From assembly GCA_937930175.1 (NCBI GenBank), contig CALGLP010000023.1:100872-164871 (forward strand): a stretch of 64,000 nt of DNA, read 5' to 3'. Position 1 is the first letter of the stretch. Every line of letters begins with the position of its first letter. The position numbers were made by a program, and so were the translations under genes. The notes beneath the pieces are model-generated. The model saw only the letters and a list, made by a program, of their open reading frames with translations. It was not told the origin of the DNA and ran no database searches. Positions 686-18,525 of this stretch are shown piece by piece. The DNA is from an uncultured bacterium. GTDB taxonomy: Bacteria; Omnitrophota; Gorgyraeia; Zapsychrales; Aceulaceae.

Positions 686-817
686 TTTTTTCATCGTTTT
701 TCCTGTCTACGGAGAAGATGTGTGCGGTTGCAAGGCGCAACATTGATTCCCAGATTCATTATTTTGCTTTTGAGTTGTCTTGCATCACTTTTCATCGTAT
801 GTTAGAATGACAGCGTT

Positions 818-2047: not shown

Positions 2048-2062
2048 TGAAAGGAAAGCGAT

Positions 2063-3448: not shown

Positions 3449-3455
3449 GGCCTCT

Positions 3456-4181
3456 ATGAAAAGATATGCGAAAACACAATACGCGTTTACATTTGTAGAA
3501 ACTCTTTTGGGGTTTCTTATTTTTTCTATCGTAGCGCTTGTTTTGTACAGCACGTTCTTTAGTGGGCTTAAGATCCAGCAGCGCTCTCATGATGATACCG
3601 CGATGTATCATGAAGTGAAGATGGCCCTGGACATGATGGGGCGCGAGCTTGAGCAGGCCATGGCGTTTGATTTTTCTAAGATGTCGTCGGATCTTAAAGA
3701 TTTTGAGCCTACAGCGCAGAGCATCTCTTTTCTCATGGCTGATCGCCATGGCGCCATCAAGAGGATCAGCTATTATTTAGAAGATAAGGACAGGGTTCAA
3801 ATTTTTAAGACATTAATCGGAGAGCATTATCAAAATAATGTTTCCGTTGTTAATGTAAAGCAAGAACAGATTCCGTCGGTCGTTTTGATGCGCAGGGAAG
3901 AGCCTTTTGCCGATTTTATCGCCGGCGCCCATACTTCACACGAGCGCCAAGAAGTATTGCTTGATCATGTTGAACCTAAATCATTTCGGTTTCTTTATGC
4001 CCTTGGACTCGCGGAAGACAAGACTTCTCTTGCGTGGCAGGAGACCTGGGATAAAGAATATATCCCTGCTTTTATTCGCCTTGAGATGACGCTGATTCCC
4101 TCGCAGCCTAAGGAAAAGCCGCTAATGATCAAAAAAGATATCTATATCCCAACAGGATCTTGGGAGGAAACGTCTTCATGA
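3456..4181 (+). CDS. Minor pseudopilin, GspJ-like
   Basis: Prepilin N-terminus (MKRYAKTQYA|FTFVETLLGFLIFSIVALV) with E at +5 and Ala at -1. The ~240-aa product is consistent with GspJ. The ATG at 3456 follows the gspI stop. Confidence 0.55.
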   Translation: MKRYAKTQYAFTFVETLLGFLIFSIVALVLYSTFFSGLKIQQRSHDDTAMYHEVKMALDMMGRELEQAMAFDFSKMSSDLKDFEPTAQSISFLMADRHGAIKRISYYLEDKDRVQIFKTLIGEHYQNNVSVVNVKQEQIPSVVLMRREEPFADFIAGAHTSHERQEVLLDHVEPKSFRFLYALGLAEDKTSLAWQETWDKEYIPAFIRLEMTLIPSQPKEKPLMIKKDIYIPTGSWEETSS

Positions 4182-5257
4182 AATTTACAGGGTTTTGTTT
4201 GAGGCGTGATAATAAATCTGGCATAATATTGATAGTTGTTCTTTGGGTGTTGGCGATTTTGTCTGTCTTGGCCATCGGGCTTGGCCGCGGCGCACGCATT
4301 GATTTAGGCTTGGCCAGGCATGTGGTTGGCAAGCTCAAGGCCGAAGGTTTGGTGCAAGCTGCTGTGACCTATGCGCAGAATCAAATTAGCCTTAAGGCTG
4401 ATAAAGAAGCAACAAAGCCTTTAGTCGGCGATACCCTTTATCAGTGTGGTTTTTATTTGCCAGAGGGTAAAACCTCAGAAGATCTTTTTAAGAATGTTAG
4501 CTTAAAGGATGGTTCTTTTGATATTAGCTATGTCTTGGAGGATCGTTTAGGTAAGAAAGAGATTTGCTATGGGTTTCAGGATGAAGAGCGACGGATCAAT
4601 GTCAATGGTATCACGAGAGAAAATCAAGGCATTCTCGTCAATCTTTTTCTGCTGCTCAATGTGCCCGAAGAACAAGCAACGGCACTCGCCGGTGAAATTG
4701 TATCTTGGAGCTTAGGCCCGGAATCTGTTGGTAGTGGGGCAGGAGAGGGCGATGACATAGGAAAGGTGCAGTCTCTTGAGCATAAGGGGTTGCCGTTTCA
4801 AAATATTGAGGAGCTTTTGCTTGTTAAGGGCATGACAGAAGATATTTTTAAAAAGGTTAAGGACTATTTAACTGTTTTTCCACAAGATGGCGCAGGCGTT
4901 AATATCAACACTGCGTCGGAGATTGTTTTGAGGGCGCTGTTTCGTTTCGTTGTGGAAAAAGACACCAATTATGAAATGACGGCGGCAGATAATGTGGCTC
5001 GGGCAATTCTTTTGTATCGCCAAGGGGATGACGGGCGATCGTGTACCTTCGATGATCGCGTGATCGAGGATGCGAAGATAGGTGAATTTCTTTCGAGTGG
5101 GAGCGAACAGTCTATTTATAATGGATTGTCCAATAAAGTACAGAATTCTCAGTATTTTCGCGTGCATATTCAAGGCAGGGATAAACAATATGGTGTTTCT
5201 TCCCGGGTGGAAACAGTTATCAACAAGGACAGTATTCTTTTTTGGAAGCGACAATAA
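4178..5257 (+). CDS. Minor pseudopilin, GspK-like
   Basis: The N-terminus (GIILIVVLWVLAILSVLAIGLG) matches the GspK signature, which lacks the +5 Glu. The ~360-aa size fits. The ATG overlaps the gspJ stop (ATGA). Confidence 0.6.
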   Translation: MKFTGFCLRRDNKSGIILIVVLWVLAILSVLAIGLGRGARIDLGLARHVVGKLKAEGLVQAAVTYAQNQISLKADKEATKPLVGDTLYQCGFYLPEGKTSEDLFKNVSLKDGSFDISYVLEDRLGKKEICYGFQDEERRINVNGITRENQGILVNLFLLLNVPEEQATALAGEIVSWSLGPESVGSGAGEGDDIGKVQSLEHKGLPFQNIEELLLVKGMTEDIFKKVKDYLTVFPQDGAGVNINTASEIVLRALFRFVVEKDTNYEMTAADNVARAILLYRQGDDGRSCTFDDRVIEDAKIGEFLSSGSEQSIYNGLSNKVQNSQYFRVHIQGRDKQYGVSSRVETVINKDSILFWKRQ

Positions 5258-6703
5258 ATGAAACGCAAAGATCTTCTTATTTTTGAAATCATAGAAAATC
5301 AGCTTAGGGTTTTGCGGGCAAAATTCCTCTCGGACCAATCCTTGCATGTTGTGAGTTTCCATGTGTTTCCCTTGGAGCAGCCGCAGCGGGAGAACTTTCC
5401 TAAGATATTGTCATCGTTTCTCACTGCCAAGGATAAGCGAAGTCAGGTCATTGCTGTCATTGCGCGCAATCAGGTGATCCTTAAGAACTTTTCTTTTCCT
5501 TCGCATTCTAAAGACGAGCTGCGAAAAATGATCACGTTGCAGATGGTGGCCCAGGTTCCCTATGCGCGTGAAGATATTGTTTTTGATTATAATGTCTTGG
5601 GCCAAGATTCTCGAGGGTATACCAGTGTTTTAAGCGCTGTTGTTCATAAGGAAGCTATTGATGATCTTTTTAAGATGTTTAAGTCTGCAGGACTTACGAT
5701 CCACCAACTTGTTTTGAGCTCAAGCAGTATTGTCCGTTGGTTTTATGCGCAACAGCCGCAGCAAATAAAAAATGAGCATGCGATCACGGGTATCTTGAAT
5801 ATTGACCCGGCGCGCAGTGAATTTTGTTTTGCCCGCAAGGGGCAGCTTTTGTATGCGCGAGATATCAAATATGGCCAGCGTGATTTGGGAGCGGATACCC
5901 AAGATCTTTTCTTAAAAGACATTCTCCTGACCCTTGAAACATATGCCCGTGACCATGCTAGGGATGTTATTGATCATATGACGATTCTTGCTCCGGTGCA
6001 GATTCAGGGTCTTTTGCGTGAGAAGTTTCAGGCGCAGAGAAATATTATTGTGGATTTTGTTGACCCCTATGCGTCGATTACAGACTCTAAGAATGTGTCG
6101 ATGATGGAGGTTTTGCAAGCAGGGCATTTGTCTCCGGTTGTTTGTCTTGGTGCGGCACAGGAAAGTCATAAAATTTCTTTGAATCTTCTTCCTGAGGACG
6201 TGAGGAAAAGCCAAAGGGCAACAGCGCAAAAATGGCAGTTGGCTCAGCTCTTTGTTTTAGTTTTGATTAACGTTGCTTTATTTTTTTCTGTTTCTTTTCG
6301 GGCTTTGTATCAAGACCAGGCGCAGCTTAGTGATCTCAAAAAGCAGGTCGTTGAGATGCGGTCGCGTGTTGATGCTATTAATCGCCAGAGTGAAAAGCTT
6401 AAGCAAATTCAAGCGCATTTTCAGCCCCAAGGATCCGCGGTGGATATTATTTATCATCTTTATGACATGACTCCTAAGGAAATCTCTTTTCAGCTGTTGT
6501 ATCTTGATCGTGATAATAATTTGACCATTCAGGGGATCGCGGAAACGCGCTCGAGCGTCAATGATTTCAACCGTAGCTTGACAAAAAATCCTTTGTTTAA
6601 AGATGTGAGTCTGCAGTATGCGGCCCAGCGAAGATTTTTTGAGGGTGAGTTGACGGATTTTAAAATAACCGCGGTTGTTAATGACGCCAAGGAGCCCCAA
6701 TGA
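5258..6703 (+). CDS. GspL-like assembly protein: PilM-like cytoplasmic actin-fold domain, one TM segment, and a PilN-like periplasmic coiled-coil domain
   Basis: The 481-aa product has a single central TM (LAQLFVLVLINVALFFSVSF). A coiled-coil region follows it (QDQAQLSDLKKQVVEMRSRVDAINRQSEKLKQIQ). The gene sits between gspK and gspM. Confidence 0.5.
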   Translation: MKRKDLLIFEIIENQLRVLRAKFLSDQSLHVVSFHVFPLEQPQRENFPKILSSFLTAKDKRSQVIAVIARNQVILKNFSFPSHSKDELRKMITLQMVAQVPYAREDIVFDYNVLGQDSRGYTSVLSAVVHKEAIDDLFKMFKSAGLTIHQLVLSSSSIVRWFYAQQPQQIKNEHAITGILNIDPARSEFCFARKGQLLYARDIKYGQRDLGADTQDLFLKDILLTLETYARDHARDVIDHMTILAPVQIQGLLREKFQAQRNIIVDFVDPYASITDSKNVSMMEVLQAGHLSPVVCLGAAQESHKISLNLLPEDVRKSQRATAQKWQLAQLFVLVLINVALFFSVSFRALYQDQAQLSDLKKQVVEMRSRVDAINRQSEKLKQIQAHFQPQGSAVDIIYHLYDMTPKEISFQLLYLDRDNNLTIQGIAETRSSVNDFNRSLTKNPLFKDVSLQYAAQRRFFEGELTDFKITAVVNDAKEPQ

Positions 6704-7233
6704 CGCATCGCTCTTTTTCCAATCGCGAAAAAAGTATTTTTGTCCTTTGCGTCATAATTGTTGGTTTTTACCTTGTCTACTATTTTGGTTATCAGCAGAT
6801 GAAGGGTGACTTGGTTGCACAGCAAGAGTTGATCCTAGAAGGAAAAAAAGATTTAAGAAAATACAGCCGTATTTTGCGCGAAGAAGAGCCTATCCGTCAA
6901 AAGCTGAAAAGTTACGAGGATCTTTTTAAGCAGCAATCCTCCGACGAAGGAGAGAGGACGCGGATTCTTTCTGACATTGAGGCTGTTGCCCAAAAGGCTT
7001 CGATCAAGATCACCAACATGGAGCCGGGGCGCATGAAGAAACAGGATTTCTATAATTATTTTTCAGTGAGTGTTCAGACTCAAAGTTCTTTAAAGAAAAT
7101 CTGTGCGTTTCTCTACGCTTTAGAAGACAAGCCCTATCTTTTTCATATCGATGAAATGAGACTTGAAAAATATTCGATCCAGGCTGAGGAGCTCAAGTGC
7201 CAGTTTACGATCAGCCGATCCCTTCTTCCGTAA
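6700..7233 (+). CDS. GspM/PilO-like bitopic inner-membrane protein
   Basis: The 177-aa product has an N-terminal TM (IFVLCVIIVGFYLVYYF) followed by a coiled-coil. Its start overlaps the gspL stop (ATGA). Confidence 0.4.
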   Translation: MTHRSFSNREKSIFVLCVIIVGFYLVYYFGYQQMKGDLVAQQELILEGKKDLRKYSRILREEEPIRQKLKSYEDLFKQQSSDEGERTRILSDIEAVAQKASIKITNMEPGRMKKQDFYNYFSVSVQTQSSLKKICAFLYALEDKPYLFHIDEMRLEKYSIQAEELKCQFTISRSLLP

Positions 7234-7474
7234 GATTTTTTTATTGTTTTTCCAAAAATAACCAATTTAGCTTCGTCCTTTGTAGAAGCACAGAGCCTTT
7301 CTTCGGGTTTTTTTCAGAAACCTTGTTTCTCCTCTTTTTTAGTTTTCGTTTAAATTATTCCTAATGTTCTTCTTGTTTACGCTTTTTCCGTCGATGAAAG
7401 CGCTTTCCCCAAATGCCTCAAACCCCCTTGTTTTCTCTTATATATATTACATACTTTAAGTATAAGAAGTAGTA

Positions 7475-10400
7475 GTGCAAAACAGGGTAGGGCATATGAT
7501 AAAGAGTATAAAAACTTATAAGAATTCTCTTTTATACAAAGCCATCATTTTGTGCCTTTTGTTCTCTTTTGGGCTCATGAGCATTGCTCCTCAAGAAGCC
7601 TTGTCTCAAACCCTGGCACCAGCTATTAGTAATACCCTCATCCCCTTAAGCCCGGCTTTCACACCTACCCTGGTTCGTGGAATACGTGTCTACCCTGACA
7701 ATCCCCTGAAGTTCGACTTTATTGTCGATTCTGGTGATTCCGGGCTTCAAGGGGATGAGTTAAAGAGCGAAAGCGAAAAGCTTATCCGCTACTTCCTGGC
7801 AAGTCTTACTCTTCCAGAGAATGATCTCTGGGTCAACCTTTCTCCCTATGAAAAAGACCGCATCGTTCCAGCAGAGCTTGGGACTACCGAGATGGGTATT
7901 GATATGCTTGCCCAAGACTATCTCTTAAAGCAAATAACTGCCTCTTTAACCAATCCTGATAGTGATCTTGGTAAAGAATTCTGGCAAAAGATTTACAAGC
8001 AATCCTATGAGAAATTCGGGACAACGAACGTTCCTGTCGACACCTTTAACAAGGTCTGGATCATGCCCGATAAGGCTGAAGTCTACGTTCAAGAGGATAA
8101 GGCCTTTGTCGTTGAATCGCGATTAAAAGTGATGTTAGAACAGGATTACCTCGCGATTCAACAAGCTCATAGCTCATCGCTCATAGCTGATAGCAAAACC
8201 AGCGAGCCAAGAGCCAAGAGCCAAGAGCTCGCCTCCCAGATTGTTAGGGAGGTTTTTATCCCTGTCCTTGAGAAAGAAGTCAATGAAGGCAAGAACTTTG
8301 CCCAGCTAAGGCAGATCTACAACAGCATTATCTTAAGCTACTGGTATAAGACGAATCTCAAGAACTCAATACTGAATAAGGTGTATGCGGATAAGAGAAA
8401 GGTTAAAGGACTAGAAGTCGTGAATAGTGAAAAGTATCTAGTATCTAGCCAAAAAAGCAATGAAGAGTCGTTAGAAAATGGCGAAGAAAAGCACCGGATA
8501 CTAGATACCAGATACCCTTCACAAACTCAGAATAATTCTTCTCTAGATACTATTCACTCTTCACCAGATACTGTTCAAATCATTTACCAACAATACCTCC
8601 AAACCTTTAAAAAAGGCGTTTGCAATATGATGAAGGTCGAGTATGACCCTTACACCAAGAAGAACATCCCCCGGAAATACTTTGCGGGAGGGGTGACGAC
8701 AGGAGACATAGAGAAGGTTTACAAAGAGACCGGCGCCCCGACCGCTGGCAGCGCACTTATTCGTAATTTTAAGAAAGCTACTTTAATAACGCTTATTTCT
8801 TTAATGCTTTTATCAGATCCTGTCCAGGCAAATATGGCAGCTGATGCTAATAAGAAAATGATTGAAGATATCATCGAAATGTTTGAAGAATCTCTTGGTC
8901 CAGAGAAGGCAAAAGAAATTGCCTATGATTATGTCAATACAAATCCAGAACTACGAGATAAGCTTCTTGCTGATGCGATCGCCAAGGCTCTTCGACCACC
9001 TGACGGGACTATTGATCTTGTTGGCATGCCAGAAGATTTTGAGGATCAAGAAATACCAGCTCCAGGGATCAATCTTGGCCGCTTTTCTTCTTTGGAATTT
9101 GATCATAATTCGTTTTCGCAAGATGCACCAAAAATAGAAAGGGATTCACTGAGAGAGGATGCCATGGCAAATGGAGAGATTGTCGATCGTCAAATAATTA
9201 TGTTGCCAGATGGCAGCAAAGTAACAATTGATTTTCTGCCATATTATTATCCTCCGGGTGGTCGTGTTGGGTCTATTGTAGACGAAAATTATATTGAGTT
9301 ATATCTCAGCGTATTCTTTGATGATATTGAAAATATTTCTATTGATATGCAGGATCCAAATAGTTTCTTAGGGTCCTTTTTAAATAAAGATTTGTTTTCG
9401 TCGAAAGAAGGAAAACTTGCTTTCCTGAAAGAGTGGATACGAACAGTCATGATTTATGAAATAACTAATGTTAATAGAAAAAAAGATCAATTTGAAGATA
9501 ACAAATTTCCAGATCTTGATAAATTGCTTGATCATTACCGTGTTCCCTATGGTAACCGTTCTTATCAGACTGCTGAAGCATTTGAGGCCTATTTGGCTAT
9601 GCTAGCATCAAGCCGAGATGCCAAAATGGTTATGGCGCAACTCTTTTTGTCAGAAATGCAAATACGAACTCCAATCCATTATGCGTCCAAGATGATCCTA
9701 AGAGAAATATTAGATACCTTAGGGTATAAAAAGTTTGTCTTCGCAAAAGAAAAGGAATTTTCTGAAAATACTGAAGAATCTATTGAGAAAGCATATATCA
9801 AGGGAGAGTATTTTCATGATTATGAAATGCTGTCAGAATTTATGCAGTTGCTTAAGGATAGCGAAATTATTCAAGCGGCAAAAGATTTGCATCGGAAAAT
9901 TTTCAACAAAGAAGCTTACAATATCGACGACTATATTTTTTCATTTATTAAGCAGTATTTTGATGAACAATGGCCTTCCAAAGACCTGTATCCTTTTAAT
10001 AATGACACCATTAATTATGAAAATCTTTCTGCGAATGAATTTCGAGAAATACTACAAAAGGCAATCAACCAATTTTCTGATGGATTTTGGACCTATAGCC
10101 CTTTCAATGAAGAACAAAAACCTGAATTATTTTTAAATATTATCAAGAAATCTCCGGTCCTTGGCCTTCAGAATTTCGGGATTGCTTTCCGCTCACTGAA
10201 CAGCAATAAAACAAGAAGGGAATTTGCTGATGGGTTGATGCTTATTTTTGAAAATAATCCTGAAATTGTTTCAACATATGCGGTTGATATTGTTGTGAAT
10301 AATTTAGATTTTTTTATGGATAAAGCATCTGGATTTAACAACAACCTCAAGAAAACACCTGAATACGAGAAAATACCGATTTTCATTTCTTCACTGAGAA

Positions 10401-13400
10401 CCCTCGCTGACTCCAAAGCACCCTTTAGCGACGTGAGCGAAGTGATAAAAGCTGCTTTAAAAAACAAGCATGCTCTCATCGTAGAATATCTAGATACGCA
10501 GATTGATTCCAATCAAATTTTAAGGGATGAGAATCATTTTAATATGTTGACCTATGCTGTTTATGAAATAGAGTTATCGCCTAATAAGAAAATGAAATAT
10601 CTCAAAGTATTGTATGACATTGCAATAAACAAAGTTAATGATTTTGAGCGATTTAAGCACATACGTGCGCTTAGTTCCTTAGTCAGATTGATCGAAGAGG
10701 ACATGCCTTTGCTGGAAGCAATAGATGGACCATTCATCGAGAATCTTAAGACTTTATTAGCCTCGAAGACTTATCCTGACTACAAGATGATGCGAAAAAC
10801 CAATGAGGTGAATGTCGCGCTCTACAATCCACTTGACCCTGAATACGTTATATCAAGATTTATAGACGCAGGATACACGAAAAGCACAAAAGATAATTTG
10901 ATTGTATTAACAAAAACGCTAAATGGGAAAAACGTAACAGTTACCCTTGATCCCACTGGAGACGCAGATAATTATCAAGGTCAGATATTCAAGCTTATGC
11001 TTGACCCAAAAATAAATATTATTAGCTACAGCGGTCATGCAGGAATGGGGGCAACTTTGTTGTTTGCTTTATATCAAGCCCCTGATTTAAAAGATAACCT
11101 GCAAGCAGGCTCAAAGATAATCGCACTCTTAGCATGCTACAGTGCACAGAATTATTTGACACAAGTTATGCAAAAATATCAATATTCTCATTTTTTTGGA
11201 ACATTAACGGATTCATATATGCCAGACGATACAGATGCGCTATTAAACTTGCTCGAGGGTTACAGCTTAGAGGAGTCTTGGGAAGAGATCAGTCGGCGCA
11301 TTTCTGAGCAGGAGCAGGAGGCTTATGGGGGAAGAGTAGAGTATATTTCTCCGAATAATGAGGAACTGTTAGATTATTTAGATTTGGATGGGGATGGTTA
11401 CCCTGATGGAAAAAATAGAGCGGAAAATATTTATTTAACGCCGTTGTCTGATATTTTTCTACTTGAACAGGAAAATTTTAATTATGAGCCTGGTGGAAAC
11501 ATAGACGAAGAAAGAATTGTTTCTAATAAAGTAGGAATCGTAACTGAGAGAGTAAAACATTTCTTTAGATACAATGATTTGCTAAAGACTTTTTCTGAAA
11601 GAATAAACCCTGGAACATTTGAGAGGCCACTGCAGGATCAACAAAATGCATTGTTTGTCGAAGAAAACCGAGTTGCCTTTCAAGACCTTTCCTATGATAT
11701 GAACGTTAATCTTGGATATCGAAACAAATCAGAAGCAGTATTGATAATGATGAGCTTGTGGGAAGCAAATAAATATTTCTCAGGGGATGATGTTTTTGAT
11801 CAAGTAAGAGGGCTTCAATTAGTTGCGGAATTTGTAAAATATTTTAATAAAGAGCATTTATTTCCACTTTTTCTGGAGAAATATAAGCTAAAGTATAAGG
11901 GTATTACGTTATCGACACTCATAAAGACACTAGATATTTATAAAACAGAAGATCGCATTGAAGCAATAAAAGAAATATTAAAGATTTTTAATTATAAGGA
12001 AATATTGAGTGAGGATGAGTTGAAAGATAAGTTGAAAAAAGAGGGATTGCTCTCGGGCTCTGCGGCAACAGGCCAGAATCTAACACCTCAAAAAGATCCT
12101 ATTTTTAAAGGTGTGTATAATCCTGAAGCTATCCCTCCGGGGGCAACCATTGAAGGTTATGGACGAAAAGTTAATAATAAAATGATTTATTATCCTTTGG
12201 CCCTGGGACAGGATTGGCTCTCTCCTGTTCTTTCTGCTATGGTGAACAACACGGATCTTTCTGTTGTTTTTAGAAGATCTCCTAAGGAGGGCCTAGCTCT
12301 TAAGGAGGGCAAAAATCCCACGAAAACCGAGGAAGTCTGGATCGTCAAGGCCGTGGCGCCGGGTGAAAAAGGCAAGAAGGCCGTGGCGTCGTCAAGTGCG
12401 AGCGTTAATCAAGGTTCAGCAAGCGTGTCGTCGTCGAATATTGTGTTCTTAAGAAATTTAAAACAATTAGAAGGGCGCACTGTTTCTTTTGACGGCAAAG
12501 AATATGCATTGAATATTGAGATAGAAGGGGAAAGCGTTAGCATGTACCTCTTTGATGATTTTGGAAGAAGAACTTATCATCCTATTGTTCGCTTGGGGAT
12601 AGATTCAAGCCACGTAGATTTGGCCATGATTGATATTTTTGAGTTTTCTTTGGGAAGCGTAGCTTTTTCTCATGACCATCCCCGTTATGGCAACGAAAAA
12701 AAAGCGATGGAAGCGATTGCGCAAGGAAGAATGGAGGAGGGCTTTGAAGATTTAGAACTCGCCAACTTGAAAGAAAAAGATCCGGATGCCTATATAAAAG
12801 AACTTATTAAAAGGCAAAACGCCACATACAATAAGAACGCAATGAATTTATCGGGAAAAGGAGTTGAACAGCAAGTTTTAAAACATATTCAAAGCACTAT
12901 TCCTCAGAATTCTTTCGCAAGCATTCTTGTGCGTTTGCCGGAGTTTCAAGTCTTTGGGATCCAATCGCCTTATGCAATTTTTTATGATGAAAAAAATGAC
13001 TTTTATAAAAAGTTAAAAGAAGATAATATTGGGCATTATTTTATTATTGAATATGAGGAAGACCGACCTAGAGCTGAGCTATTTCTGGAAGAAGGAGATT
13101 CTGTTTTAACATTAAAAGAGCTGGGAGCACTTCTTATTTTTAAAGATCCTTCTTTTTCAAAGAATTTTGCACGTGCTGGTTGGTACTGGGAAAGGGATGG
13201 GGATTTCTTAGAACTCGATGGCTTGGAAGTTATCGAGGAATTAATTAATTATCAAAACGAAGCAAGGGAGCATTATAAGCTTGTCAGCCTGGGGCTTAAA
13301 AAGGATGACCTGCTTGGCTTTACTCGGATAGATGAAAACGGTGATCCTATGATTGAGAATTTTGTTTTTCAGATTATTCTTGGCGGCACGGCCTCAGCCC

Positions 13401-14974
13401 CCGGCATTGCGTCGTTGAATATGGAAGCCGGGATTGACCACGCGACAATAAGAAAACAAGAGAAGAGCTTGGAAGAAAAGGGTAATGTGTTTATCAAATT
13501 CCTCGCTTCAGGCGCGCAGTATGGAGGCTTGCACCCGGAATTGGTTAAAACCGTCTTTTTGTCTTTTAGCACAGAGATCGAGCAAGAGCTTCTTAGGATC
13601 AAGACAAAGTGGTATCCCAATGATCCTCGGGATGTTTGGGCATTGCTGATGGATCCTCGGGCAACGCTTTTCAAAGATGACTTCAGGAAAAGTGAATTTT
13701 TGTATGAGATCCTCAGGGGCCAGTCGTCTAAGATTATCCGATACCCGGATGAATATTTAGCGCTGATCAATAGTGACGAGTTTTTGGGTATGGTTAAAAA
13801 GGCTGTAACCCAACATCAGGAGAGCCAAAAGCCCCAAGAAATTCGCATTGGTTTGGTGGGCGCAGGTTACGGGCAGGAGGCTGTGTTCTTTCCACTTTTG
13901 GTCCAGAACAAGATCCGAGAGATTTGCCGAACCTTGAACGCGCCTGAATCTACGATCCGTTTGAAGGTCAATGTATATTCCAGAAAAAATAAAATTACAG
14001 ACAAACTTAAGAAAAACGAGATTCTTTATCCGAAATCTGAGGTCATAAAAGCATTGAAATCGACGTATTTTCTTGCGGCCAAGAATAAAACCAAACCCCT
14101 GTACTCGGAGGATGAGATTGAAAGTCAGCTTAAAGGATTTTTACAGTCCCTGCCGGATGATCCCGAGGCCTTACAACGGACTGATATGCTTAATGACATC
14201 TTGAGCTTTCACGACGTCGACCTTGTTTTGTTGATCGATGTTCAGGCAAAGTCATTAGAGAAGAACGATATTCTTCTTGTTCATAATGTGTTTCAATATC
14301 TTAGGCCGAAGGACACCCCTGAGGAAACTTGGGAAAATAACGTGCATAAAGCATTTGTGTTCCTTGATTCCATTGCCTCACCAGGCGCTGTTATTTCCGT
14401 TGTTAACCAGGACAATTGGGATTCTGAAGTCTTTAAGGCGTACGAACAACAATATCGATCTGGCTCCGAATATGAACCGATCATGCCGAAATTTACTCAG
14501 AAGATGAAAAATGAATTGTTATTCGAGGGAAGAGAGTCCGCAGAGAAGGCCTTTTTTAGGAAAAAAGGCCTGGCGATGGAAACGGATGGCACCTTAATAG
14601 ATGCGAACAATGAAAGTACTGGAGGAATCGACTTTAACGCCAAAAATATGAACGTGGAAGTAAGAACAGAAGGGATAAAGGATGGTGAAAAGTTTCAAGT
14701 GTCAAGTGTCAAGGAAGGCCAAAACAATCTAACACCTAACACTTTAAACATGACACAATCTGATTCCTCAAATCCTTTCATCCTCAATTCCTCTAGCCCT
14801 ATTTTTTCTGGCAACTTTGAGGGCCTGTTTCCGGTCATCATCAGCATTACGCCTGTGACAAATTTTTATCATCTTTTAGGATTGTCTCAAGAAGAAAATC
14901 CCGAGGCCTTGCCTCAGCCTGTGGCCCAAGGCGAGCGCATCCTAGCCCTCCAACCTGCTGAAGTAAGAACATAG
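7475..14974 (+). CDS. Giant multidomain protein of 2499 aa. It has an N-terminal hydrophobic/signal-like region, a CHAT/caspase-like His-Cys dyad, a DxDxDG Ca-binding loop and a C-terminal CheR-like Rossmann methyltransferase-like region.
   Basis: The ORF is uninterrupted for 7.5 kb. N-terminal hydrophobic stretch: KAIILCLLFSFGLMSIAPQEALSQ. Clan-CD-like dyad: NIISYSGHAGMG ... KIIALLACYSAQN, about 35 aa apart. Ca-binding loop: DYLDLDGDGYPDGKN. CheR-like motifs: IRIGLVGAGYGQEA ... DILLVHNVFQYL ... SPGAVISV. Confidence 0.7.
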   Translation: MQNRVGHMIKSIKTYKNSLLYKAIILCLLFSFGLMSIAPQEALSQTLAPAISNTLIPLSPAFTPTLVRGIRVYPDNPLKFDFIVDSGDSGLQGDELKSESEKLIRYFLASLTLPENDLWVNLSPYEKDRIVPAELGTTEMGIDMLAQDYLLKQITASLTNPDSDLGKEFWQKIYKQSYEKFGTTNVPVDTFNKVWIMPDKAEVYVQEDKAFVVESRLKVMLEQDYLAIQQAHSSSLIADSKTSEPRAKSQELASQIVREVFIPVLEKEVNEGKNFAQLRQIYNSIILSYWYKTNLKNSILNKVYADKRKVKGLEVVNSEKYLVSSQKSNEESLENGEEKHRILDTRYPSQTQNNSSLDTIHSSPDTVQIIYQQYLQTFKKGVCNMMKVEYDPYTKKNIPRKYFAGGVTTGDIEKVYKETGAPTAGSALIRNFKKATLITLISLMLLSDPVQANMAADANKKMIEDIIEMFEESLGPEKAKEIAYDYVNTNPELRDKLLADAIAKALRPPDGTIDLVGMPEDFEDQEIPAPGINLGRFSSLEFDHNSFSQDAPKIERDSLREDAMANGEIVDRQIIMLPDGSKVTIDFLPYYYPPGGRVGSIVDENYIELYLSVFFDDIENISIDMQDPNSFLGSFLNKDLFSSKEGKLAFLKEWIRTVMIYEITNVNRKKDQFEDNKFPDLDKLLDHYRVPYGNRSYQTAEAFEAYLAMLASSRDAKMVMAQLFLSEMQIRTPIHYASKMILREILDTLGYKKFVFAKEKEFSENTEESIEKAYIKGEYFHDYEMLSEFMQLLKDSEIIQAAKDLHRKIFNKEAYNIDDYIFSFIKQYFDEQWPSKDLYPFNNDTINYENLSANEFREILQKAINQFSDGFWTYSPFNEEQKPELFLNIIKKSPVLGLQNFGIAFRSLNSNKTRREFADGLMLIFENNPEIVSTYAVDIVVNNLDFFMDKASGFNNNLKKTPEYEKIPIFISSLRTLADSKAPFSDVSEVIKAALKNKHALIVEYLDTQIDSNQILRDENHFNMLTYAVYEIELSPNKKMKYLKVLYDIAINKVNDFERFKHIRALSSLVRLIEEDMPLLEAIDGPFIENLKTLLASKTYPDYKMMRKTNEVNVALYNPLDPEYVISRFIDAGYTKSTKDNLIVLTKTLNGKNVTVTLDPTGDADNYQGQIFKLMLDPKINIISYSGHAGMGATLLFALYQAPDLKDNLQAGSKIIALLACYSAQNYLTQVMQKYQYSHFFGTLTDSYMPDDTDALLNLLEGYSLEESWEEISRRISEQEQEAYGGRVEYISPNNEELLDYLDLDGDGYPDGKNRAENIYLTPLSDIFLLEQENFNYEPGGNIDEERIVSNKVGIVTERVKHFFRYNDLLKTFSERINPGTFERPLQDQQNALFVEENRVAFQDLSYDMNVNLGYRNKSEAVLIMMSLWEANKYFSGDDVFDQVRGLQLVAEFVKYFNKEHLFPLFLEKYKLKYKGITLSTLIKTLDIYKTEDRIEAIKEILKIFNYKEILSEDELKDKLKKEGLLSGSAATGQNLTPQKDPIFKGVYNPEAIPPGATIEGYGRKVNNKMIYYPLALGQDWLSPVLSAMVNNTDLSVVFRRSPKEGLALKEGKNPTKTEEVWIVKAVAPGEKGKKAVASSSASVNQGSASVSSSNIVFLRNLKQLEGRTVSFDGKEYALNIEIEGESVSMYLFDDFGRRTYHPIVRLGIDSSHVDLAMIDIFEFSLGSVAFSHDHPRYGNEKKAMEAIAQGRMEEGFEDLELANLKEKDPDAYIKELIKRQNATYNKNAMNLSGKGVEQQVLKHIQSTIPQNSFASILVRLPEFQVFGIQSPYAIFYDEKNDFYKKLKEDNIGHYFIIEYEEDRPRAELFLEEGDSVLTLKELGALLIFKDPSFSKNFARAGWYWERDGDFLELDGLEVIEELINYQNEAREHYKLVSLGLKKDDLLGFTRIDENGDPMIENFVFQIILGGTASAPGIASLNMEAGIDHATIRKQEKSLEEKGNVFIKFLASGAQYGGLHPELVKTVFLSFSTEIEQELLRIKTKWYPNDPRDVWALLMDPRATLFKDDFRKSEFLYEILRGQSSKIIRYPDEYLALINSDEFLGMVKKAVTQHQESQKPQEIRIGLVGAGYGQEAVFFPLLVQNKIREICRTLNAPESTIRLKVNVYSRKNKITDKLKKNEILYPKSEVIKALKSTYFLAAKNKTKPLYSEDEIESQLKGFLQSLPDDPEALQRTDMLNDILSFHDVDLVLLIDVQAKSLEKNDILLVHNVFQYLRPKDTPEETWENNVHKAFVFLDSIASPGAVISVVNQDNWDSEVFKAYEQQYRSGSEYEPIMPKFTQKMKNELLFEGRESAEKAFFRKKGLAMETDGTLIDANNESTGGIDFNAKNMNVEVRTEGIKDGEKFQVSSVKEGQNNLTPNTLNMTQSDSSNPFILNSSSPIFSGNFEGLFPVIISITPVTNFYHLLGLSQEENPEALPQPVAQGERILALQPAEVRT

Positions 14975-15146: not shown

Positions 15147-15974
15147 ATGAGCTATTATCAAGCACTGCATTGCTATAAAGAACCATTTTCGTTAAGTCCG
15201 GATCCGGATTTTCTTTATTATTCGCAAGAGCATGCCACGGTTTTAAAACGCTTGGAGATCGCGGTGCGCCTCAAGAAGGGATTGAGCATTGTCTTAGGCG
15301 ATGTGGGGGCAGGCAAGACCACGATTTCGCGGGCGTTATTTCAATCCTTTAGCGGGGAGGAAGATAAGTTTATTTTTCATATGATTTTGGATCCAGATTT
15401 TAAGAATGAGTATCAGTTTTTAGCACATTTGACCAAGATGTTTGGGGTGAGCCCTTTTTTTCGCTCATCTATGGATCAGCGTCAAGCCATTGAGCAGTAT
15501 CTTTTTCGCAAGGCTGTGGAAGAAGGCAAGACCGTGGTCTTAGTCATTGATGAAAGTCAAAAGTTGACCCTGCCTTTTATTGAAATTTTGCGAACCCTTC
15601 TTAACTATGAAACCAATGAATATAAGCTTTTGCAACTTGTTCTTTTTGGGCAGATGGAATTGCTGCCGCGGATTAAGGATGTGAAAAATTTTATGGATCG
15701 CGTGGCCTTAAAATATATTATCAATCCTCTGGATGAACAAGAAACCGCGCAGATGATCCGTTTTCGTTTGGCCATGGCTGGTCTCGACGGACACCGTGAA
15801 GTTTTTACCCCTGAAGCGCTTAAGAAAGTCTACGAAGCAACCCAAGGGTATCCACGAAAAATTACGTTGTTGTGCCATAATGCCTTGGAGCGCTTGGTTA
15901 TGGATGGTTGCGAGACTGTAGGCGGGGATATGATCGAGGCCCTGCTCGATGAAGAAAAAAGGTGGCGTGCCTAA
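15147..15974 (+). CDS. gspA: ExeA/GspA-family AAA ATPase (T2SS protein A / MshM-like)
   Basis: Walker A motif (LSIVLGDVGAGKTTI). The ~275-aa size fits the family. The conserved ExeA region (GYPRKITLLCHNALE) is present. The next gene is a small bitopic partner. Confidence 0.7.
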   Translation: MSYYQALHCYKEPFSLSPDPDFLYYSQEHATVLKRLEIAVRLKKGLSIVLGDVGAGKTTISRALFQSFSGEEDKFIFHMILDPDFKNEYQFLAHLTKMFGVSPFFRSSMDQRQAIEQYLFRKAVEEGKTVVLVIDESQKLTLPFIEILRTLLNYETNEYKLLQLVLFGQMELLPRIKDVKNFMDRVALKYIINPLDEQETAQMIRFRLAMAGLDGHREVFTPEALKKVYEATQGYPRKITLLCHNALERLVMDGCETVGGDMIEALLDEEKRWRA

Positions 15975-16546
15975 TGCGAGAGAATCTTCCGGAAGAAAAG
16001 TTGCTTAAGTTGATTCGTACGAAAAAAGGAGAGGAGCAGAATCCTCTTGCGCAGCCGACACCTAAAGCGTCGGAAGGCGTTGATCTTAAATATTTCTTTT
16101 TTTTGGTGAATGGGGTCTTAATCCTTGCGGCGCTTGGATTGTTAGGATTTTTAGCCTATCATCTTTTTTTTGTTGTTGACGAAAAGCCATTGGTTATCCC
16201 TCAGGAGGTAGCGGTGACTCCTCCAGATGAATTGCTTGAACCTCAAGGGATTGTGGTAGAGAAGAAGCCTTTTGAGTTTTATAGTGAGCAATTTGCTAAG
16301 CGTGATTTGTTTACGCGGTCTCTTAAGGAAGTTGCAGCGAGTGCAAGCGTTGACTTGACCAAACGCTACAAGCTTGTGGGGATTGTTTTAGGTGGCGTTC
16401 CGGAGGCGATCATTGAAGATCTGACGGCGAAGACTACAAAGTTTGTTCATGAAGGTGATCGTTTGGATGCCGTGGAAGTCAAAAGCATTAAAGAGGGACG
16501 GATTGTTTTTCTTCAGGAAGGTCTCGAGATTGAGCTCAAGCAATAG
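15974..16546 (+). CDS. Bitopic membrane protein, possible GspB/ExeB-like or GspC-like partner of ExeA
   Basis: One TM segment (FFFLVNGVLILAALGLLGFLAYHLFFVV). Its start overlaps the exeA stop (TAATG). It lies between exeA and the secretin gene. Confidence 0.35.
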   Translation: MRENLPEEKLLKLIRTKKGEEQNPLAQPTPKASEGVDLKYFFFLVNGVLILAALGLLGFLAYHLFFVVDEKPLVIPQEVAVTPPDELLEPQGIVVEKKPFEFYSEQFAKRDLFTRSLKEVAASASVDLTKRYKLVGIVLGGVPEAIIEDLTAKTTKFVHEGDRLDAVEVKSIKEGRIVFLQEGLEIELKQ

Positions 16547-16744
16547 GATATTTGATAAAAATTGGGGATTAAAAGGAATTGTTGCAAAGAGTTTGATATA
16601 ATAATATTAAACTTTTTGTTTTGCTAATGAAATTAGTAGCAGATTCATTTTCTCGCCAAAGACAGCGAGATAAATTTGCCTGTCAATACAATAATGGCGG
16701 GCTCATTGGGACTTCGCTAAAAGACAGCGGAGTAAATTCGCACT

Positions 16745-16781
16745 TTTAAGTTATGTTCACTAGCGTTCCATAACTTAAGTG
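16745..16781. promoter_or_regulatory. 10-bp inverted repeat (ttaagttatg-N13-cataacttaa) just upstream of the secretin RBS and start. Candidate operator or RNA hairpin.
   Basis: The inverted repeat is visible in the sequence. It ends about 15 nt before the RBS (aaaggag) of gspD. Confidence 0.3.
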
Positions 16782-16797
16782 CTCATTTAAAGGAGCT

Positions 16798-18525
16798 ATG
16801 ATGAAGATGAGAAAAAAATTATGGATAAGTTTTTGCGTACTTGGCCTGGTTTTGGGTATGCGGCATGATGTTGCTGCTCAAAAAGCTCCTGGTGTCGTTT
16901 CGCAAACTCCTTTAGAGGTTCAGCAAGCCCTTGATGAAATGGAGCGAAGGGATGCTCTGGTCGTGCCTGTTGCTGGTGATGATTTCCCAAGGGAAAATGC
17001 TTTTATGGACCCTGAAGGCGGCTTTGCGCAGGATGATCCAGTTGTTGCCGCAGGATCTTCAGAGGGTGAAGTTTTAGCGCAAGGTGTTGTGGAGGGGAGG
17101 CCTTCGTTGATTCTTGATGTCCTTGAGCTTAAAGATATGGATATCGGTGATGTTTTGAAACTTATTTCTAAAAAAAGTGGGCTCAACATCATTTCAGGTA
17201 AGAATGTTGTTGGCAAGATAACAATTTATTTGAAGAACGTTGATGTGCGCGATGCCTTGCGGATTATCCTTGAGGCGAATAATCTGGCGTATGTTGAAGA
17301 TAAAGGCATTATCAAGGTTATTCCAGGACAGGAGTTTGAGACTACCTTTGGGTACAAGTTTGGACAAGATCTGACAACCAAGATTATTGAGTTGAAATAC
17401 GCGAAAGTAGAAGATGTGACGGCGGTGCTTAATCAGCTTAAGGGTCAGGCTGGCAAGATATCTTCCGACGGCATATCAAATACGATTATCCTTATCGATC
17501 GCTTAGACAAAGTCCTTTTGATGGAAGATATGATTAAGCGCATGGATATTCCGGTTCTTACCAAGGTGTTTGAGCTTAAATATGCCAAGGCGGAAGACAT
17601 TACAAAGAACGTAGAAACTCTTTTATCAAAGAATGTTGGCAAGATTGAATTTGATAAACGATCGAATAAGCTTTTTATTACGGATACGTTAGACAAGCTT
17701 AAAGAAGTTGCGAAGATGCTTCAGGCCTTTGACCAGCGGCATTCTGAGGTCATGATCGAGGCCAAGATCGTTCAGGTTACATTGAGTGATGACTATAAAC
17801 TGGGTATTGATTGGGAAGCGATTGTGAGTGATTTTCATAATTTAACGCTGGCTAGTCAATTTCCTGTCTTTCAGTCAGTAGTTGCTGGTCAGGTCGTTGA
17901 TGACAACAGTGATCGAGGAAAGCTTAAGATTGGAACACTTGCTGCTGATGATTATGAAGTCTTAATTGAAGCATTGGATGTTGTTGGGAAGACCAATGTC
18001 TTGTCTAACCCGCGTATTACGGTAATCAACAATGAAGAGGCCAAGATCCTTGTTGGATCAAACGAGCCTTATGTGACATCTCAAACTACAACGAGCTCTT
18101 CGGGTCCAGCGACGACAGCTGAAACCATTAATTTTATTGAGGTGGGTGTGAAGCTTTTTGTAACGCCGACGATTCATGGCGATGGCTATATCACAATGAA
18201 GATTAGGCCAGAGGTCAGTTCTGCTGCAAATTTCTTACTCACGAGCACGAATAATAAAATTCCTATTGTAGAAACATCTCAGGCTGAAACAATAGTTATG
18301 GTTAAGGATAATGCTACGGTTGTAATCGGCGGACTCATTAAGGATGAAGAGAACCATACGGTTAATAAAGTTCCTGTGTTGGGGGATGTGCCTTTCTTGG
18401 GTCGTATTTTTCGCAGCGAAACGAGAACCAAAGATAAGACAGAGATCGTGATCTTCTTGACGCCTAAAATTGTGACTGGCGAAAATCCTTCGAAAACAAA
18501 CAATTCGGCAGAAAGTTCAAAATAG
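16798..18525 (+). CDS. gspD: Secretin GspD/PilQ (outer-membrane channel)
   Basis: Signal peptide present. The C-terminal secretin domain motifs are present (NPRITVINNEEAKILVGSNEPY ... VPVLGDVPFLGRIFRSETRTKDKTEIVIFLTPKIV). Confidence 0.85.
   Translation: MMKMRKKLWISFCVLGLVLGMRHDVAAQKAPGVVSQTPLEVQQALDEMERRDALVVPVAGDDFPRENAFMDPEGGFAQDDPVVAAGSSEGEVLAQGVVEGRPSLILDVLELKDMDIGDVLKLISKKSGLNIISGKNVVGKITIYLKNVDVRDALRIILEANNLAYVEDKGIIKVIPGQEFETTFGYKFGQDLTTKIIELKYAKVEDVTAVLNQLKGQAGKISSDGISNTIILIDRLDKVLLMEDMIKRMDIPVLTKVFELKYAKAEDITKNVETLLSKNVGKIEFDKRSNKLFITDTLDKLKEVAKMLQAFDQRHSEVMIEAKIVQVTLSDDYKLGIDWEAIVSDFHNLTLASQFPVFQSVVAGQVVDDNSDRGKLKIGTLAADDYEVLIEALDVVGKTNVLSNPRITVINNEEAKILVGSNEPYVTSQTTTSSSGPATTAETINFIEVGVKLFVTPTIHGDGYITMKIRPEVSSAANFLLTSTNNKIPIVETSQAETIVMVKDNATVVIGGLIKDEENHTVNKVPVLGDVPFLGRIFRSETRTKDKTEIVIFLTPKIVTGENPSKTNNSAESSK

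Follow-up and report, generated by a model that had tools for sequence, protein, structure and literature searches.

The locus studied here raises the question of why a single 7.5-kb reading frame lies among the genes of a type II secretion system (T2SS), and of what its product does there. We looked for the answer in a window of 64,000 nucleotides, the whole stretch of DNA analysed, which comes from an uncultured Omnitrophota bacterium, and in related loci and proteins.

An intact giant gene at the gspM-exeA boundary

The frame at 7475..14974 (+) has zero internal stops over 2,499 aa when counted from GTG 7475, which is a mechanical start. The start codon is likely ATG 7496, giving a giant ORF at 7496..14974 (+, stop codon included) and a product of 2,492 aa, an identical copy of which is already present, nameless, on a 214,015-bp contig in NCBI/ENA. 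Since a 7.5-kb frame stays open in DNA of ~40% GC and the N-terminus of its product is conserved, the giant ORF is a real gene and not a chance one.

Upstream of it, an annotation by Pfam and NCBIfam gave one T2SS transcription unit (41..7233, +) with gspE (41-685, truncated by the window end), gspF, gspG, gspH, gspI, gspJ, gspK, gspL and gspM. The assignments of gspI and gspJ come from weak matches; gspL (5258-6703) is PilM/PilN-like, and gspM occupies 6700-7233. The downstream unit (15147..18525, +) contains an exeA/gspA-like AAA_22 ATPase gene (15147-15974), a conserved 194-aa ORF (orf194, 15962-16546) and the secretin gene gspD (16798-18525). This trio is syntenic across 80 Omnitrophota loci, and here it is followed, 3' of the secretin, by amidase_3, a racemase, queDCEF and RNase PH. 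A sequence-only reading of the window had placed an intact giant ORF between gspE-M and the exeA/gspA-like-orf194-secretin trio, and this arrangement was recovered. The same reading had the ORF splitting the gsp operon, which did not hold: the ORF sits at the gspM-exeA boundary, where uninterrupted loci have a spacer of ~100-430 nt. The spacers flanking it measure 262 nt and 172 nt, and the gsp genes mostly abut or overlap. Rfam returned nothing credible for either spacer, and nothing could be concluded from simple scans for sigma-70 promoters and terminators.

Two conserved caps around an exchangeable enzyme-like array

The giant ORF encodes a 2,492-aa modular member of an Omnitrophota-restricted multigene family with two caps. 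More than 2,343 relatives of the protein were found, each spanning 14-22% of the query, and all those with a named source were from Omnitrophota. The N-cap, or N-module (7607..8695, +; aa ~38-400), is ~360 aa long and terminates in PRKYFAGG. Over the N-terminal 400 aa, the giant protein shares 42-81% identity with 120 matched proteins, and an HMM built from 31 paralogs matched its aa 14-442 with an E-value of 1e-184. The signature of this end in the family is a Sec-type signal peptide, then ...LWVNLSPYEKDRI..., ...TFNKVWI.P... and ...PRKYF(S/A)GG. The C-cap, or C-module (14612..14911, +; aa ~2373-2472), reads GGIDFN...(insert)...FEGLFPVIISITPVTNFYHLLGL. An HMM made from paralog C-termini located it at aa 2381-2479 of the stop-to-stop frame (E 1e-27). 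Its family signature, GGID(L/F)N ... GF.PVIINI.PV.N...LLG, covers ~70 aa, within which the window copy has a ~30-aa insert, and the module is found at the extreme C-terminus in 116 of the 120 top matches. An HMM scan of the whole window gave one N-module and one C-module and no more. Both modules had zero matches in Pfam, NCBIfam and PDB, a structure model of the N-module (pLDDT 68.5, moderate confidence) had no fold match, and the cap pair was undescribed in the literature that we searched.

Between the caps lies an array of enzyme-like domains that is quickly exchanged among paralogs and lineages. Paralogs P0004 and P0006, which occupy the same syntenic position, have N-modules that are 67% identical, flanking housekeeping proteins that are 56-61% identical, and unrelated middles. 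Similarly, when the window copy is compared with that of locus L085, the N-modules are 60% identical and the middles 26-27% identical or unrelated. ExeA is 78% identical between the window and locus L003, whose occupant is of the P0006 type, as in L085. Along six segments of the giant ORF, GC3 forms a mosaic of 0.48, 0.31, 0.33, 0.36, 0.50 and 0.44.

The best-defined part of the array (10373..12070, +; aa 960-1525) combines a helical repeat, a clan-CD (CHAT/separase/gingipain-like) cysteine peptidase and an alpha/beta C-subdomain. The clan-CD region has the caspase-hemoglobinase alpha/beta fold, and in the modelled fragment two strands end at residues 221 and 254 and are directly followed by H222 and C255, in the order His then Cys. 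In the full protein, the predicted catalytic residues are H1181 (nt 11036-11038) and C1214 (nt 11135-11137), and together with G1180 they form the sole invariant columns in 29 aligned sequences. The giant protein carries a caspase-like putative protease domain with an intact His1181/Cys1214 dyad, in agreement with the dyad put forward by the sequence-only reading. A name from a curated family was not obtained: CHAT PF12770, Peptidase_C14, C13, C25, C11 and C80 gave no Pfam match for the giant protein, the clan-CD region of 10 homologs had none either, and a PDB profile search was likewise empty. The Pfam identities expected for the protein, CHAT PF12770, Peptidase_C14/C80 and CheR PF01739, amounted to zero matches.

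Within the same domain, DLDGDGYPDG (11381..11410, +; aa 1296-1305) is a putative Ca2+-binding loop of the DxDxDG type. The motif is kept across the A2 homologs, with the consensus YxDxDxDG and a nearly invariant G1301, and this conservation (DLDGDG, aa 1296) makes the calcium-binding loop of the sequence-only reading plausible. Unlike known clan-CD enzymes (CHAT, separase, gingipains, metacaspases, C11), the domain has an extra C-terminal subdomain with this conserved loop. It constitutes an unnamed family of its own with ~70 representative clusters, whose carriers are capped Omnitrophota proteins and many uncapped ones, some with high-G+C-looking sequences. The N-module is present in only 5 of 68 additional clan-CD representatives, and P0002 and P0005 are two further capped carriers. 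Since so few proteins combine the two, autoprocessing by this domain is not general to the capped family.

Three other regions of the array were delimited. A degenerate HExxH-like domain (9173..9895, +; aa ~560-800) was aligned with P0003, P0006, P0008 and L003. At the HExxH position, the relatives read HEMTH (P0003), HELTH (P0006) and HEVTH (P0008) and the giant protein reads YEITN (aa 654-658, nt 9455-9469), so this domain appears inactivated in the window copy. Following a Ser-rich linker, a domain of unknown function (12443..13345, +; aa ~1650-1950) shares 25-27% identity with P0006, P0007 and L003. Pfam had no match for either domain. The last is a class-I methyltransferase-like region (13832..14401, +; aa ~2113-2302) with the motifs IGLVGAGYGQE and LLVHNVFQYL and with homologs in P0028, P0068 and P0038. 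The sequence-only reading had called it CheR-like, which it may be, if weakly. In an hhalign comparison with E. coli CheR, the SAM-motif regions fall in register (VGAGYGQE with AASTGEEP, LLVHNVFQYL with IFCRNVMIYF). The alignment is weak (26.8% probability, P 6.8e-4, 143 columns), and neither Pfam (CheR PF01739, E<=10) nor PDB, searched with a 4-sequence profile, gave a match.

Searches of Pfam and NCBIfam with the whole protein and five sub-fragments yielded nothing significant, and PDB sequence searches with the whole protein and with profiles of the N-module, clan-CD, methyltransferase-like and C-module regions yielded nothing. A word-indexed homology search retrieved nothing for aa 1560-2350, and for aa 455-985 solely a 100% identical fragment. 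Because such a word prefilter misses divergent regions of the array, a local jackhmmer on the fetched proteins was used. The N-module, the C-module and the clan-CD subfamily, all unnamed, are candidates for curated models.

A promoter-like element and a variable slot

Upstream of the giant gene, we detected a promoter-like composite whose upstream element is a perfect 12-bp palindrome, GAAAGCGCTTTC (7396..7407, +), and whose -10-like box, CATACTTT (7450..7457, +), lies ~40 nt before the ATG. In the upstream regions of paralogs, (T/C)ATACT(T) is conserved at a fixed spacing from the palindrome. Among the family genes in the fetched loci, ~20 of 92 have the palindrome with a TATACT-like box ~43 nt downstream of it; elsewhere, ~12 such sites occur in the other ~2.3 Mb. 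As the GAAARCGYTTTC...TATACT composite is also found before a few unrelated genes, it is enriched at family genes and not exclusive to them, and a strictly family-specific operator was rejected. Judged by these motifs, the giant gene possesses a promoter-like element of its own that is typical of the family.

In 53 of 59 related loci, gspM abuts exeA. The remaining 6 have inserts, with a gspL-to-exeA distance of 3.1-9.2 kb, and the insert products are Ig/PKD/Fn3 proteins, a signal-peptide kinase protein, and CARDB or TPR proteins, nearly all with N-terminal signal peptides. In loci L002, L003 and L085 a family member precedes exeA, and in the distant L112 one follows gspM. The L085 gene still has exeA and the secretin on its 3' side, without gspE-M on its 5' side. 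A T2SS gene was present within the available flanks of 2 of 80 other family genes, and P0004, whose N-module is the closest among the paralogs, lies away from T2SS genes. By our own estimate (~20 copies, one 17-kb locus, a ~2-Mb genome), T2SS adjacency at the family level is about what chance would give. Since the family is mostly encoded away from secretion genes, the position in the T2SS locus is a lineage-specific insertion and not proof that the product is T2SS cargo.

The sequence-only reading had pointed to gene order in related genomes, where orthologous gsp loci might lack the ORF and a mobile element might account for it. Most orthologous loci (the 53 of 59) do lack it, and a mobile-element origin is unsupported. 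It was rejected on finding no above-chance flanking direct or inverted repeats, no tandem repeats, and ordinary chromosomal neighbours; around the giant ORF, no transposase, integrase, tRNA-type or island context was seen. Family genes coincide with synteny breakpoints in L001, in L085 and in the window, and the conserved N-module explains the assembly breaks at family genes in these genomes.

Export, rival explanations and known systems

The N-terminal signal-like region of the sequence-only reading is indeed there, as a Sec-type signal peptide (7496..7606, +; aa 1-37, MIKSIKTYKNSLLYK-AIILCLLFSFGLMSIA-PQEALS/Q). On inspection, it has a K-rich n-region, a 16-residue h-region and an ALS/Q site, a layout matched in paralogs, in which the site is ALA/Q; cleavage is predicted before Q. 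Such a Sec/Tat-type signal peptide is a feature of T2SS substrates. The sole strong hydrophobic peak of the protein falls at aa 12-30 (KD 2.15). A short second hydrophobic segment, ATLITLISLMLL (8777..8812, +; aa 428-439), is signal-peptide-like (KK...DPVQA/N). A segment of this kind after the N-module occurs in 36 of 121 family members, the window copy included, and its 12 residues here would probably not suffice for a stable membrane span. In 94 of 121 members, no TM-like segment was found more than ~110 aa past the N-module.

The explanation that we prefer, and to which we give about an even chance, is that the giant protein is a capped modular protein exported in full via Sec and acting as an extracytoplasmic effector, with the adjacent T2SS as its most plausible route. 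Sec would export the entire protein, given one strong hydrophobic segment and a second of just 12 residues. Beyond the cytoplasm, the protein would serve a host-dependent bacterium as an effector, either secreted or held at the surface; the caps may be a common handle for export, sorting or anchoring, and the clan-CD domain could cut either the giant protein itself or external substrates. Gene position suggests the neighbouring T2SS as the most plausible system to carry it across the outer membrane.

Several observations run against this explanation. A SAM methyltransferase here, and kinases, GNATs and glycolytic enzymes in paralogs, are normally cytoplasmic; the second hydrophobic segment present in ~30% of members could be a stop-transfer anchor; and the 2/80 T2SS adjacency, P0004 away from the T2SS and L085 without gspE-M speak against the secretion route. 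The first two would fit a protein retained in the envelope and unrelated to the T2SS, with the N-module in the periplasm and a stop-transfer segment tethering the array on the cytoplasmic face, or with everything periplasmic, the gsp adjacency being accidental. The chance-level adjacency, the family genes at synteny breakpoints and a promoter-like element of its own in place of an operon-internal position are in line with such retention. We consider it a possible but tentative reading, as the segment is only 12 residues long here and ~70% of members have none and would be fully exported. Moreover, with its basic n-region and AxA-like end the segment resembles a signal peptide, whose charges are oriented the wrong way for a return from periplasm to cytoplasm, and the slot is otherwise occupied by typical exported surface proteins. 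An autoprocessing carrier in the manner of MARTX, whose caps deliver the array into a host or prey cell where the clan-CD domain, perhaps triggered by Ca2+, releases the modules, would account for the conserved ends flanking variable enzyme modules, the intact fold with its invariant dyad and conserved DxDxDG loop, the fast cassette turnover typical of conflict proteins and the host dependence of the phylum. It is nonetheless unlikely, considering how seldom the N-module accompanies the clan-CD domain (the 5 of 68, plus P0002 and P0005), that RTX/MARTX repeats were not found in the giant protein, and that a Sec signal peptide takes the place of a T1SS signal.

The place between gspM and exeA, in a locus without a clear gspC and with closest relatives that retain a family gene upstream of exeA, could also hint at a structural or accessory part of the T2SS, for instance a GspC substitute, a pilotin or a regulator of secretin assembly. 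This is very improbable: the gene is missing from 53 of 59 orthologous loci that keep all the others, most of the domains differ between the occupants found in close relatives, these genomes encode dozens of paralogs at other places, and there is zero similarity to any Gsp family. We give equally little credit to a roleless, decaying or selfish insertion, whether the cargo gene of a mobile element or a nascent pseudogene. The lost HExxH motif, the low GC and GC3 over the central 3.3 kb and the absence from most related loci would suit it, but the 7.5-kb frame is unbroken, the protein retains its clan-CD dyad and methyltransferase-like motifs, the N-module is better conserved than housekeeping proteins, and the window otherwise consists of ordinary chromosome, free of the transposase, integrase, flanking repeats or island context looked for around the gene.

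The sequence-only reading had regarded a giant ORF at this position of a T2SS locus as undescribed, which needs correcting. Large genes next to T2SS/Tad-like loci are known in Omnitrophota (West-Roberts et al. 2023, bioRxiv 10.1101/2023.11.21.568195; Nielsen & Lui 2026, bioRxiv 10.64898/2026.06.07.730766), and sslE lies beside the gsp genes of E. coli (PMC3707838). Like the window protein, the Omnitrophota giants have a signal peptide and strung methyltransferase, kinase, GNAT and sugar-metabolism-type domains beside secretion genes in the same phylum, and a SurA/Rotamase_2 gene neighbours the capped paralogs P0004 and P0006 as it does giants. They are far larger, however (10-147 kaa against 2.5 kaa), and the window locus is a canonical gspE-M/gspD one, not of the rcpC/Flp type. 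Pfam detected none of the SecA-DEAD, C39, S8 or dockerin/TSP3 domains of giant proteins in the window protein, and the N-cap/C-cap signature is described in neither of the two giant-protein papers. We rejected the idea that the capped family continues the giant series towards smaller sizes, since one 13,918-aa Aceula giant, read over its C-terminal 3,171 aa, had neither cap there.

SslE (YghJ) is likewise a large Sec-exported protease-type protein encoded beside the gsp genes that secrete it, in the cluster yghJ-pppA-yghG-gspC-M (PMC3707838). It is a single-copy M60-like lipoprotein whose gene is upstream of gspC and co-regulated with the operon, whereas the window gene lies between gspM and exeA with its own promoter-like element and many dispersed paralogs, and its secretion is putative. 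The likeness to MARTX is one of working principle, by analogy: conserved termini around a variable effector array with a clan-CD protease in it. Secretion of MARTX toxins is by a T1SS, and they have glycine-rich A/B/C repeats and an InsP6-activated C80 CPD; the giant protein showed no such repeats, T1SS C-terminal signal or C80 CPD. As in Rhs, CDI and PE/PPE-type families, the capped family is multigenic, with a conserved trafficking-type end, fast-swapped cassettes and paralogs that serve as recombination substrates. Unlike these, it is conserved at both ends, and what varies is a central enzyme array of several kb. At the window gene, we saw neither an adjacent immunity-like gene nor a toxin domain.

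Omnitrophota are host-dependent nanobacteria that are widespread and for the most part uncultured, and their oversized multi-enzyme proteins are an open puzzle. Our results place one gene for such a protein in a family that can be defined by two conserved caps, neither of them annotated, and that swaps its central cassettes rapidly and shares a promoter-like element. They also reveal a variable slot that recurs in the T2SS locus. On a bolder and rather doubtful reading, the caps would define an undescribed delivery platform of more than 2,000 members in host-dependent Omnitrophota; recognised by envelope machinery, possibly the T2SS, they would carry interchangeable arrays of proteases, methyltransferases, kinases and even enzymes of central metabolism to the surface or into host or prey cells; were this true, the copy between gspM and exeA would be a genomic trace of T2SS dependence. 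The hypotheses now opened are that the caps may act as export or sorting handles, that the T2SS may be the route, and that the clan-CD domain may be a processing protease.

The giant gene and its neighbours

The intact ORF claimed in the sequence-only reading was confirmed: the giant ORF (7475..14974, plus strand) is one frame, unbroken by stops, of 2,499 aa counted from its GTG, and a 214,015-bp NCBI/ENA contig already has an identical protein annotated, without a name. Translation likely starts at ATG 7496, with GGGTAGGG just before it, giving 2,492 aa; residues are numbered from there. The neighbours were also as first listed: gspE (cut by the window end), gspF, G, H, I, J, K, L and M upstream, and an AAA_22 ExeA/GspA-like ATPase, a conserved 194-aa ORF and the secretin downstream. 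An amidase_3 gene sits 3' of the secretin, followed by a racemase gene, queDCEF and RNase PH, and the remainder of the window consists of ordinary chromosomal genes. The gspL-position protein (5258-6703, 481 aa) is a PilM-like/PilN-like fusion. The ExeA-like ATPase (15147-15974, 275 aa) has the AAA_22 domain only, without a peptidoglycan-binding domain, and its top NCBIfam match, under the cutoff, is the XrtA/PEP-CTERM-associated ATPase. A 28-nt near-perfect palindrome, GCAGAGCGTTCTCTAGAGAGGGCTCTGC (15078-15105), lies in the spacer from the giant ORF stop to exeA; at L085, one of the loci fetched for comparison, a 74-aa MerR-family gene fills this spacer. No RNA element was detected with Rfam in either spacer flanking the giant ORF.

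Conserved caps and variable middles

When the product was searched against 5.8 billion proteins, the significant matches numbered more than 2,343. Relatives among the matches listed were 1.4-4.3 kaa long with query coverage of just 14-22% apiece, and the named relatives, like those of exeA, were all from Omnitrophota, which places the source of the window in this phylum. When the matches were mapped, the common pieces were the first ~400-430 aa (N-module) and ~70-100 aa at the extreme C-terminus (C-module), with only scattered pairwise similarities between these two caps. A signal peptide of the classical kind, in which a basic n-region and an h-region lead up to ...ALAQ or ALSQ, precedes the N-module. 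The module itself terminates in PRKYF(S/A)GG, and 59 of its positions are invariant across 31 paralogs. The C-module, with the consensus GGIDLNP..L.LqIkRdgnG.PLPl..QPI....I.GF.PVIINI.PVTNLP.LLGL, was found in 116 of the best 120 of the >2,343 matches. Neither cap matched Pfam, including in one-by-one scans of 31 and 26 paralogs, or PDB sequences; NCBIfam, scanned with the whole query only, gave no cap match, and a literature search found no description of either cap. In precomputed Pfam annotations, paralog middles contain methyltransferases, GNATs, kinases, PP2C, response regulators, phosphoglucomutase, TIM, isocitrate lyase, malate synthase and PPDK. The contigs of the closest relatives stop inside or beside a capped-family gene (L003 1-401; L002 and L004 contig ends), the L003 break falling within the N-module. 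A conserved N-module that breaks assemblies as a repeat would be expected to leave contig ends of this kind, and copy numbers of the family in MAGs are probably underestimated.

In the giant protein, the N-terminal hydrophobic region seen earlier corresponds to a signal peptide (aa 1-37) with an ALSQ-type end as in the paralogs. It is followed by the N-module (aa ~38-400) and by a 12-residue hydrophobic, signal-peptide-like segment (aa 428-439; window 8777-8812). An HExxH-like domain (aa ~560-800) comes next. Its motif reads HEMTH, HELTH or HEVTH in the homologous proteins P0003, P0006 and P0008, and L003 likewise has an HExxH form; the giant ORF has YEITN at this position (aa 654-658; window 9455-9469), so both metal-binding histidines are lost and the domain is predicted to be catalytically dead. 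A helical repeat, a clan-CD peptidase and an alpha/beta subdomain occupy aa 960-1525. Neither Pfam nor PDB matched the clan-CD region. Scanned exhaustively with HMMER, 1.84 billion representatives yielded 70 homologs, and in a 29-sequence alignment only G1180, H1181 and C1214 were invariant. The AF2 model was confident (pLDDT 84.5, pTM 0.78) and placed the His and Cys directly after consecutive beta-strands. This fold and the invariant dyad identify the region as a predicted clan-CD peptidase despite the lack of a curated family, which bears out the dyad first proposed, at the level of predicted fold and conserved residues; the resemblance to known clan-CD peptidases is in fold only. The Ca-binding loop also suggested there has a DxDxDG motif (DLDGDG at aa 1296) kept among the homologs, with metal binding still putative. 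The clan-CD domain (P0121-P0188) has no Pfam model and constitutes a family of its own, as yet without a name, with about 70 representative clusters. Some carriers are 400-900 aa with neither cap; several of these have sequences that look high in G+C, and in P0132 the domain is fused to VanY and Hint/intein-like domains. A domain of unknown function common to P0006, P0007 and L003 (aa ~1650-1950) precedes a methyltransferase-like region (aa ~2113-2302) and the C-module (aa ~2373-2472). For the CheR-like assignment of the methyltransferase-like region, hhalign paired VGAGYGQE with CheR AASTGEEP and LLVHNVFQYL with CheR IFCRNVMIYF at a probability of only 27% (P 7e-4), and no match was found in Pfam or PDB, leaving the assignment as a lead. 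No tandem or RTX-type repeats were found in the protein.

Comparison of related copies fits cassette exchange between conserved caps. P0004 and P0006 occupy one syntenic position; their N-modules are 67% identical against 56-61% for flanking housekeeping proteins, and their middles are unrelated and differ in length by 1,300 aa. ExeA of the window is 78% identical to that of L085 (a value taken from L003, where the same P0006-type occupant is found). What the two occupants have in common is limited to the N-module (60%), two domains (26-27%) and the C-module (36%). Within the giant ORF, GC3 is 0.48 in the N-module (window 7496-8785), 0.31-0.36 over aa 431-1920 (window 8786-13255), and back to 0.50 in the methyltransferase-like region and 0.44 in the C-module (window 13256-14971), against 0.37-0.56 in the remaining window genes. 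Such a mosaic would fit a central cassette that was swapped in.

Upstream of the giant ORF, a perfect palindrome, GAAAGCGCTTTC (7396-7407), is followed 42 nt downstream by a CATACTTT box (7450-7457), itself ~40 nt from the ATG. In general form the composite is a GAAARCGYTTTC palindrome, a spacer (about 36-48 nt) that frequently includes CCC(C)TTGTTTT, and (T/C)ATACT(T). Of the 92 family genes in the fetched loci, about 20 have it on their 5' side, whereas the other ~2.3 Mb contain only about 12 sites. Besides the window, sites include L084 9882 and 16495, L086 9870, L118 9822 and L044 7480. One of the ~12 sites away from family genes is at window 24266-24277 (minus strand), upstream of an unknown 220-aa gene (23319-23981, minus strand) whose 220-234-aa orthologs (window, L003, L004, L005, L085) carry it too. 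The giant gene therefore carries a promoter-like element of its own, of the family-typical kind, and is not merely reached by readthrough from the gsp operon. The composite may be the sign of a common regulon or of a class of strong promoters.

The gspM|exeA junction and other family loci

For comparison, 80 Omnitrophota loci were fetched around exeA orthologs. In the 59 holding both gspL and exeA, the distance from the gspL end to exeA had a median of 877 nt; there was space for gspM alone in 53, and inserts were present in six. What lies between gspM and exeA is thus a spacer separating two operons, and mostly an empty one: the giant ORF does lie there, but the gsp operon is not interrupted as had been thought. 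Nearly every insert protein opens with a signal peptide. Inserts include a 2,553-aa He_PIG/PKD/Fn3/Big protein, a 1,327-aa Ig/Fn3 protein, a 1,407-aa signal-peptide protein with a Ser/Thr kinase domain, and CARDB, TPR and small signal-peptide proteins. In one lineage, a 528-aa occupant (L063 1232-2818) has an N-terminus, MKKINNRGFSIILSIFIILTF..., resembling a class III signal of the pseudopilin or PilX type, and may be an additional minor pseudopilin. In the closest relatives, a capped-family member lies immediately 5' of exeA: the C-module in L002 (ExeA 82% identical), and P0006 in L003 (ExeA 78% identical) and L085. In the distant L112 (gspL just 27% identical), gspL-gspM is followed by a small signal-peptide ORF and then a family member.

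The capped family as a whole is without T2SS linkage. T2SS genes were found in the flanks of only 2 of 80 family loci (metagenomes, 985 kb), which we estimate to be roughly chance level for about 20 copies per genome. Other members lie among housekeeping genes, as tandem pairs, or beside a 13,918-aa giant gene. The latter (L083 1-9514, Ca. Aceula meridiana JAVCDE010000026.1) is immediately 5' of family member P0050 and about 19 kb from the T2SS locus of the same genome; both caps are missing from its C-terminal 3,171 aa, which finish in TPR-like repeats. At L085, P0006 is preceded not by gspE-M but by a block (Smr...RmuC-CutA-AhpC-SurA-like) common to L001, where it precedes paralog P0004; the downstream block (exeA-secretin-amidase-racemase-queDCEF-RNase PH) is common to the window. 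L085 therefore joins an L001-type upstream to a window-type downstream, and family genes coincide with synteny breakpoints in L001, L085 and the window, which suggests rearrangement through recombination between paralogous capped genes.

Export and possible roles

Leaving aside the N-module and the ~110 aa that follow it, the protein body lacked TM-like segments in 94 of 121 members. A short hydrophobic segment after the N-module was present in only 36 of the 121 (about 30%), with basic residues, a 12-19-residue h-region and an AxA-like end. The segment might act as a stop-transfer or offer a second signal-peptidase site at which the N-module is shed, or it might be left over from fusion to a pre-existing secreted protein. 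As the signal peptide is the sole TM-like segment of most members, the simplest reading is that capped proteins are exported whole via Sec.

Family membership, domain architecture and variable-slot context are established for the giant gene, together with the predicted clan-CD fold and its conserved dyad. Beyond this, we propose that the capped protein would pass Sec in full and, as an exported, fast-evolving multi-enzyme protein of a host-dependent bacterium, would be a secreted or surface effector, with the caps as sorting handles common to the family and the T2SS as outer-membrane route. We hold this overall reading to be evenly balanced. The T2SS route is suggested by where this copy lies, by the other slot occupants being exported proteins, and by precedents: E. 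coli sslE, a cargo gene within a gsp cluster, adjoins gspC-M (PMC3707838), and Omnitrophota giant genes adjoin T2SS-like loci (bioRxiv 10.1101/2023.11.21.568195). The latter are alike in phylum and domain repertoire but differ in size, and caps are undescribed there. With these precedents, it does not hold in general that T2SS loci are free of large genes; the gspM|exeA slot and the capped family appear undescribed so far. Family-level T2SS linkage at chance counts against the T2SS-cargo step, which we consider tentative and somewhat doubtful. An envelope-retained or membrane-tethered protein, placed beside the gsp genes by accident, is the main rival, though less likely than the export reading. 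A MARTX-like autoprocessing carrier, to which the predicted peptidase could point, is improbable even for the giant ORF copy and is excluded as a family rule because few members have the clan-CD domain; MARTX and polymorphic toxins resemble the giant protein by analogy only. If the caps turn out to be a new export handle, the finding would gain in interest.
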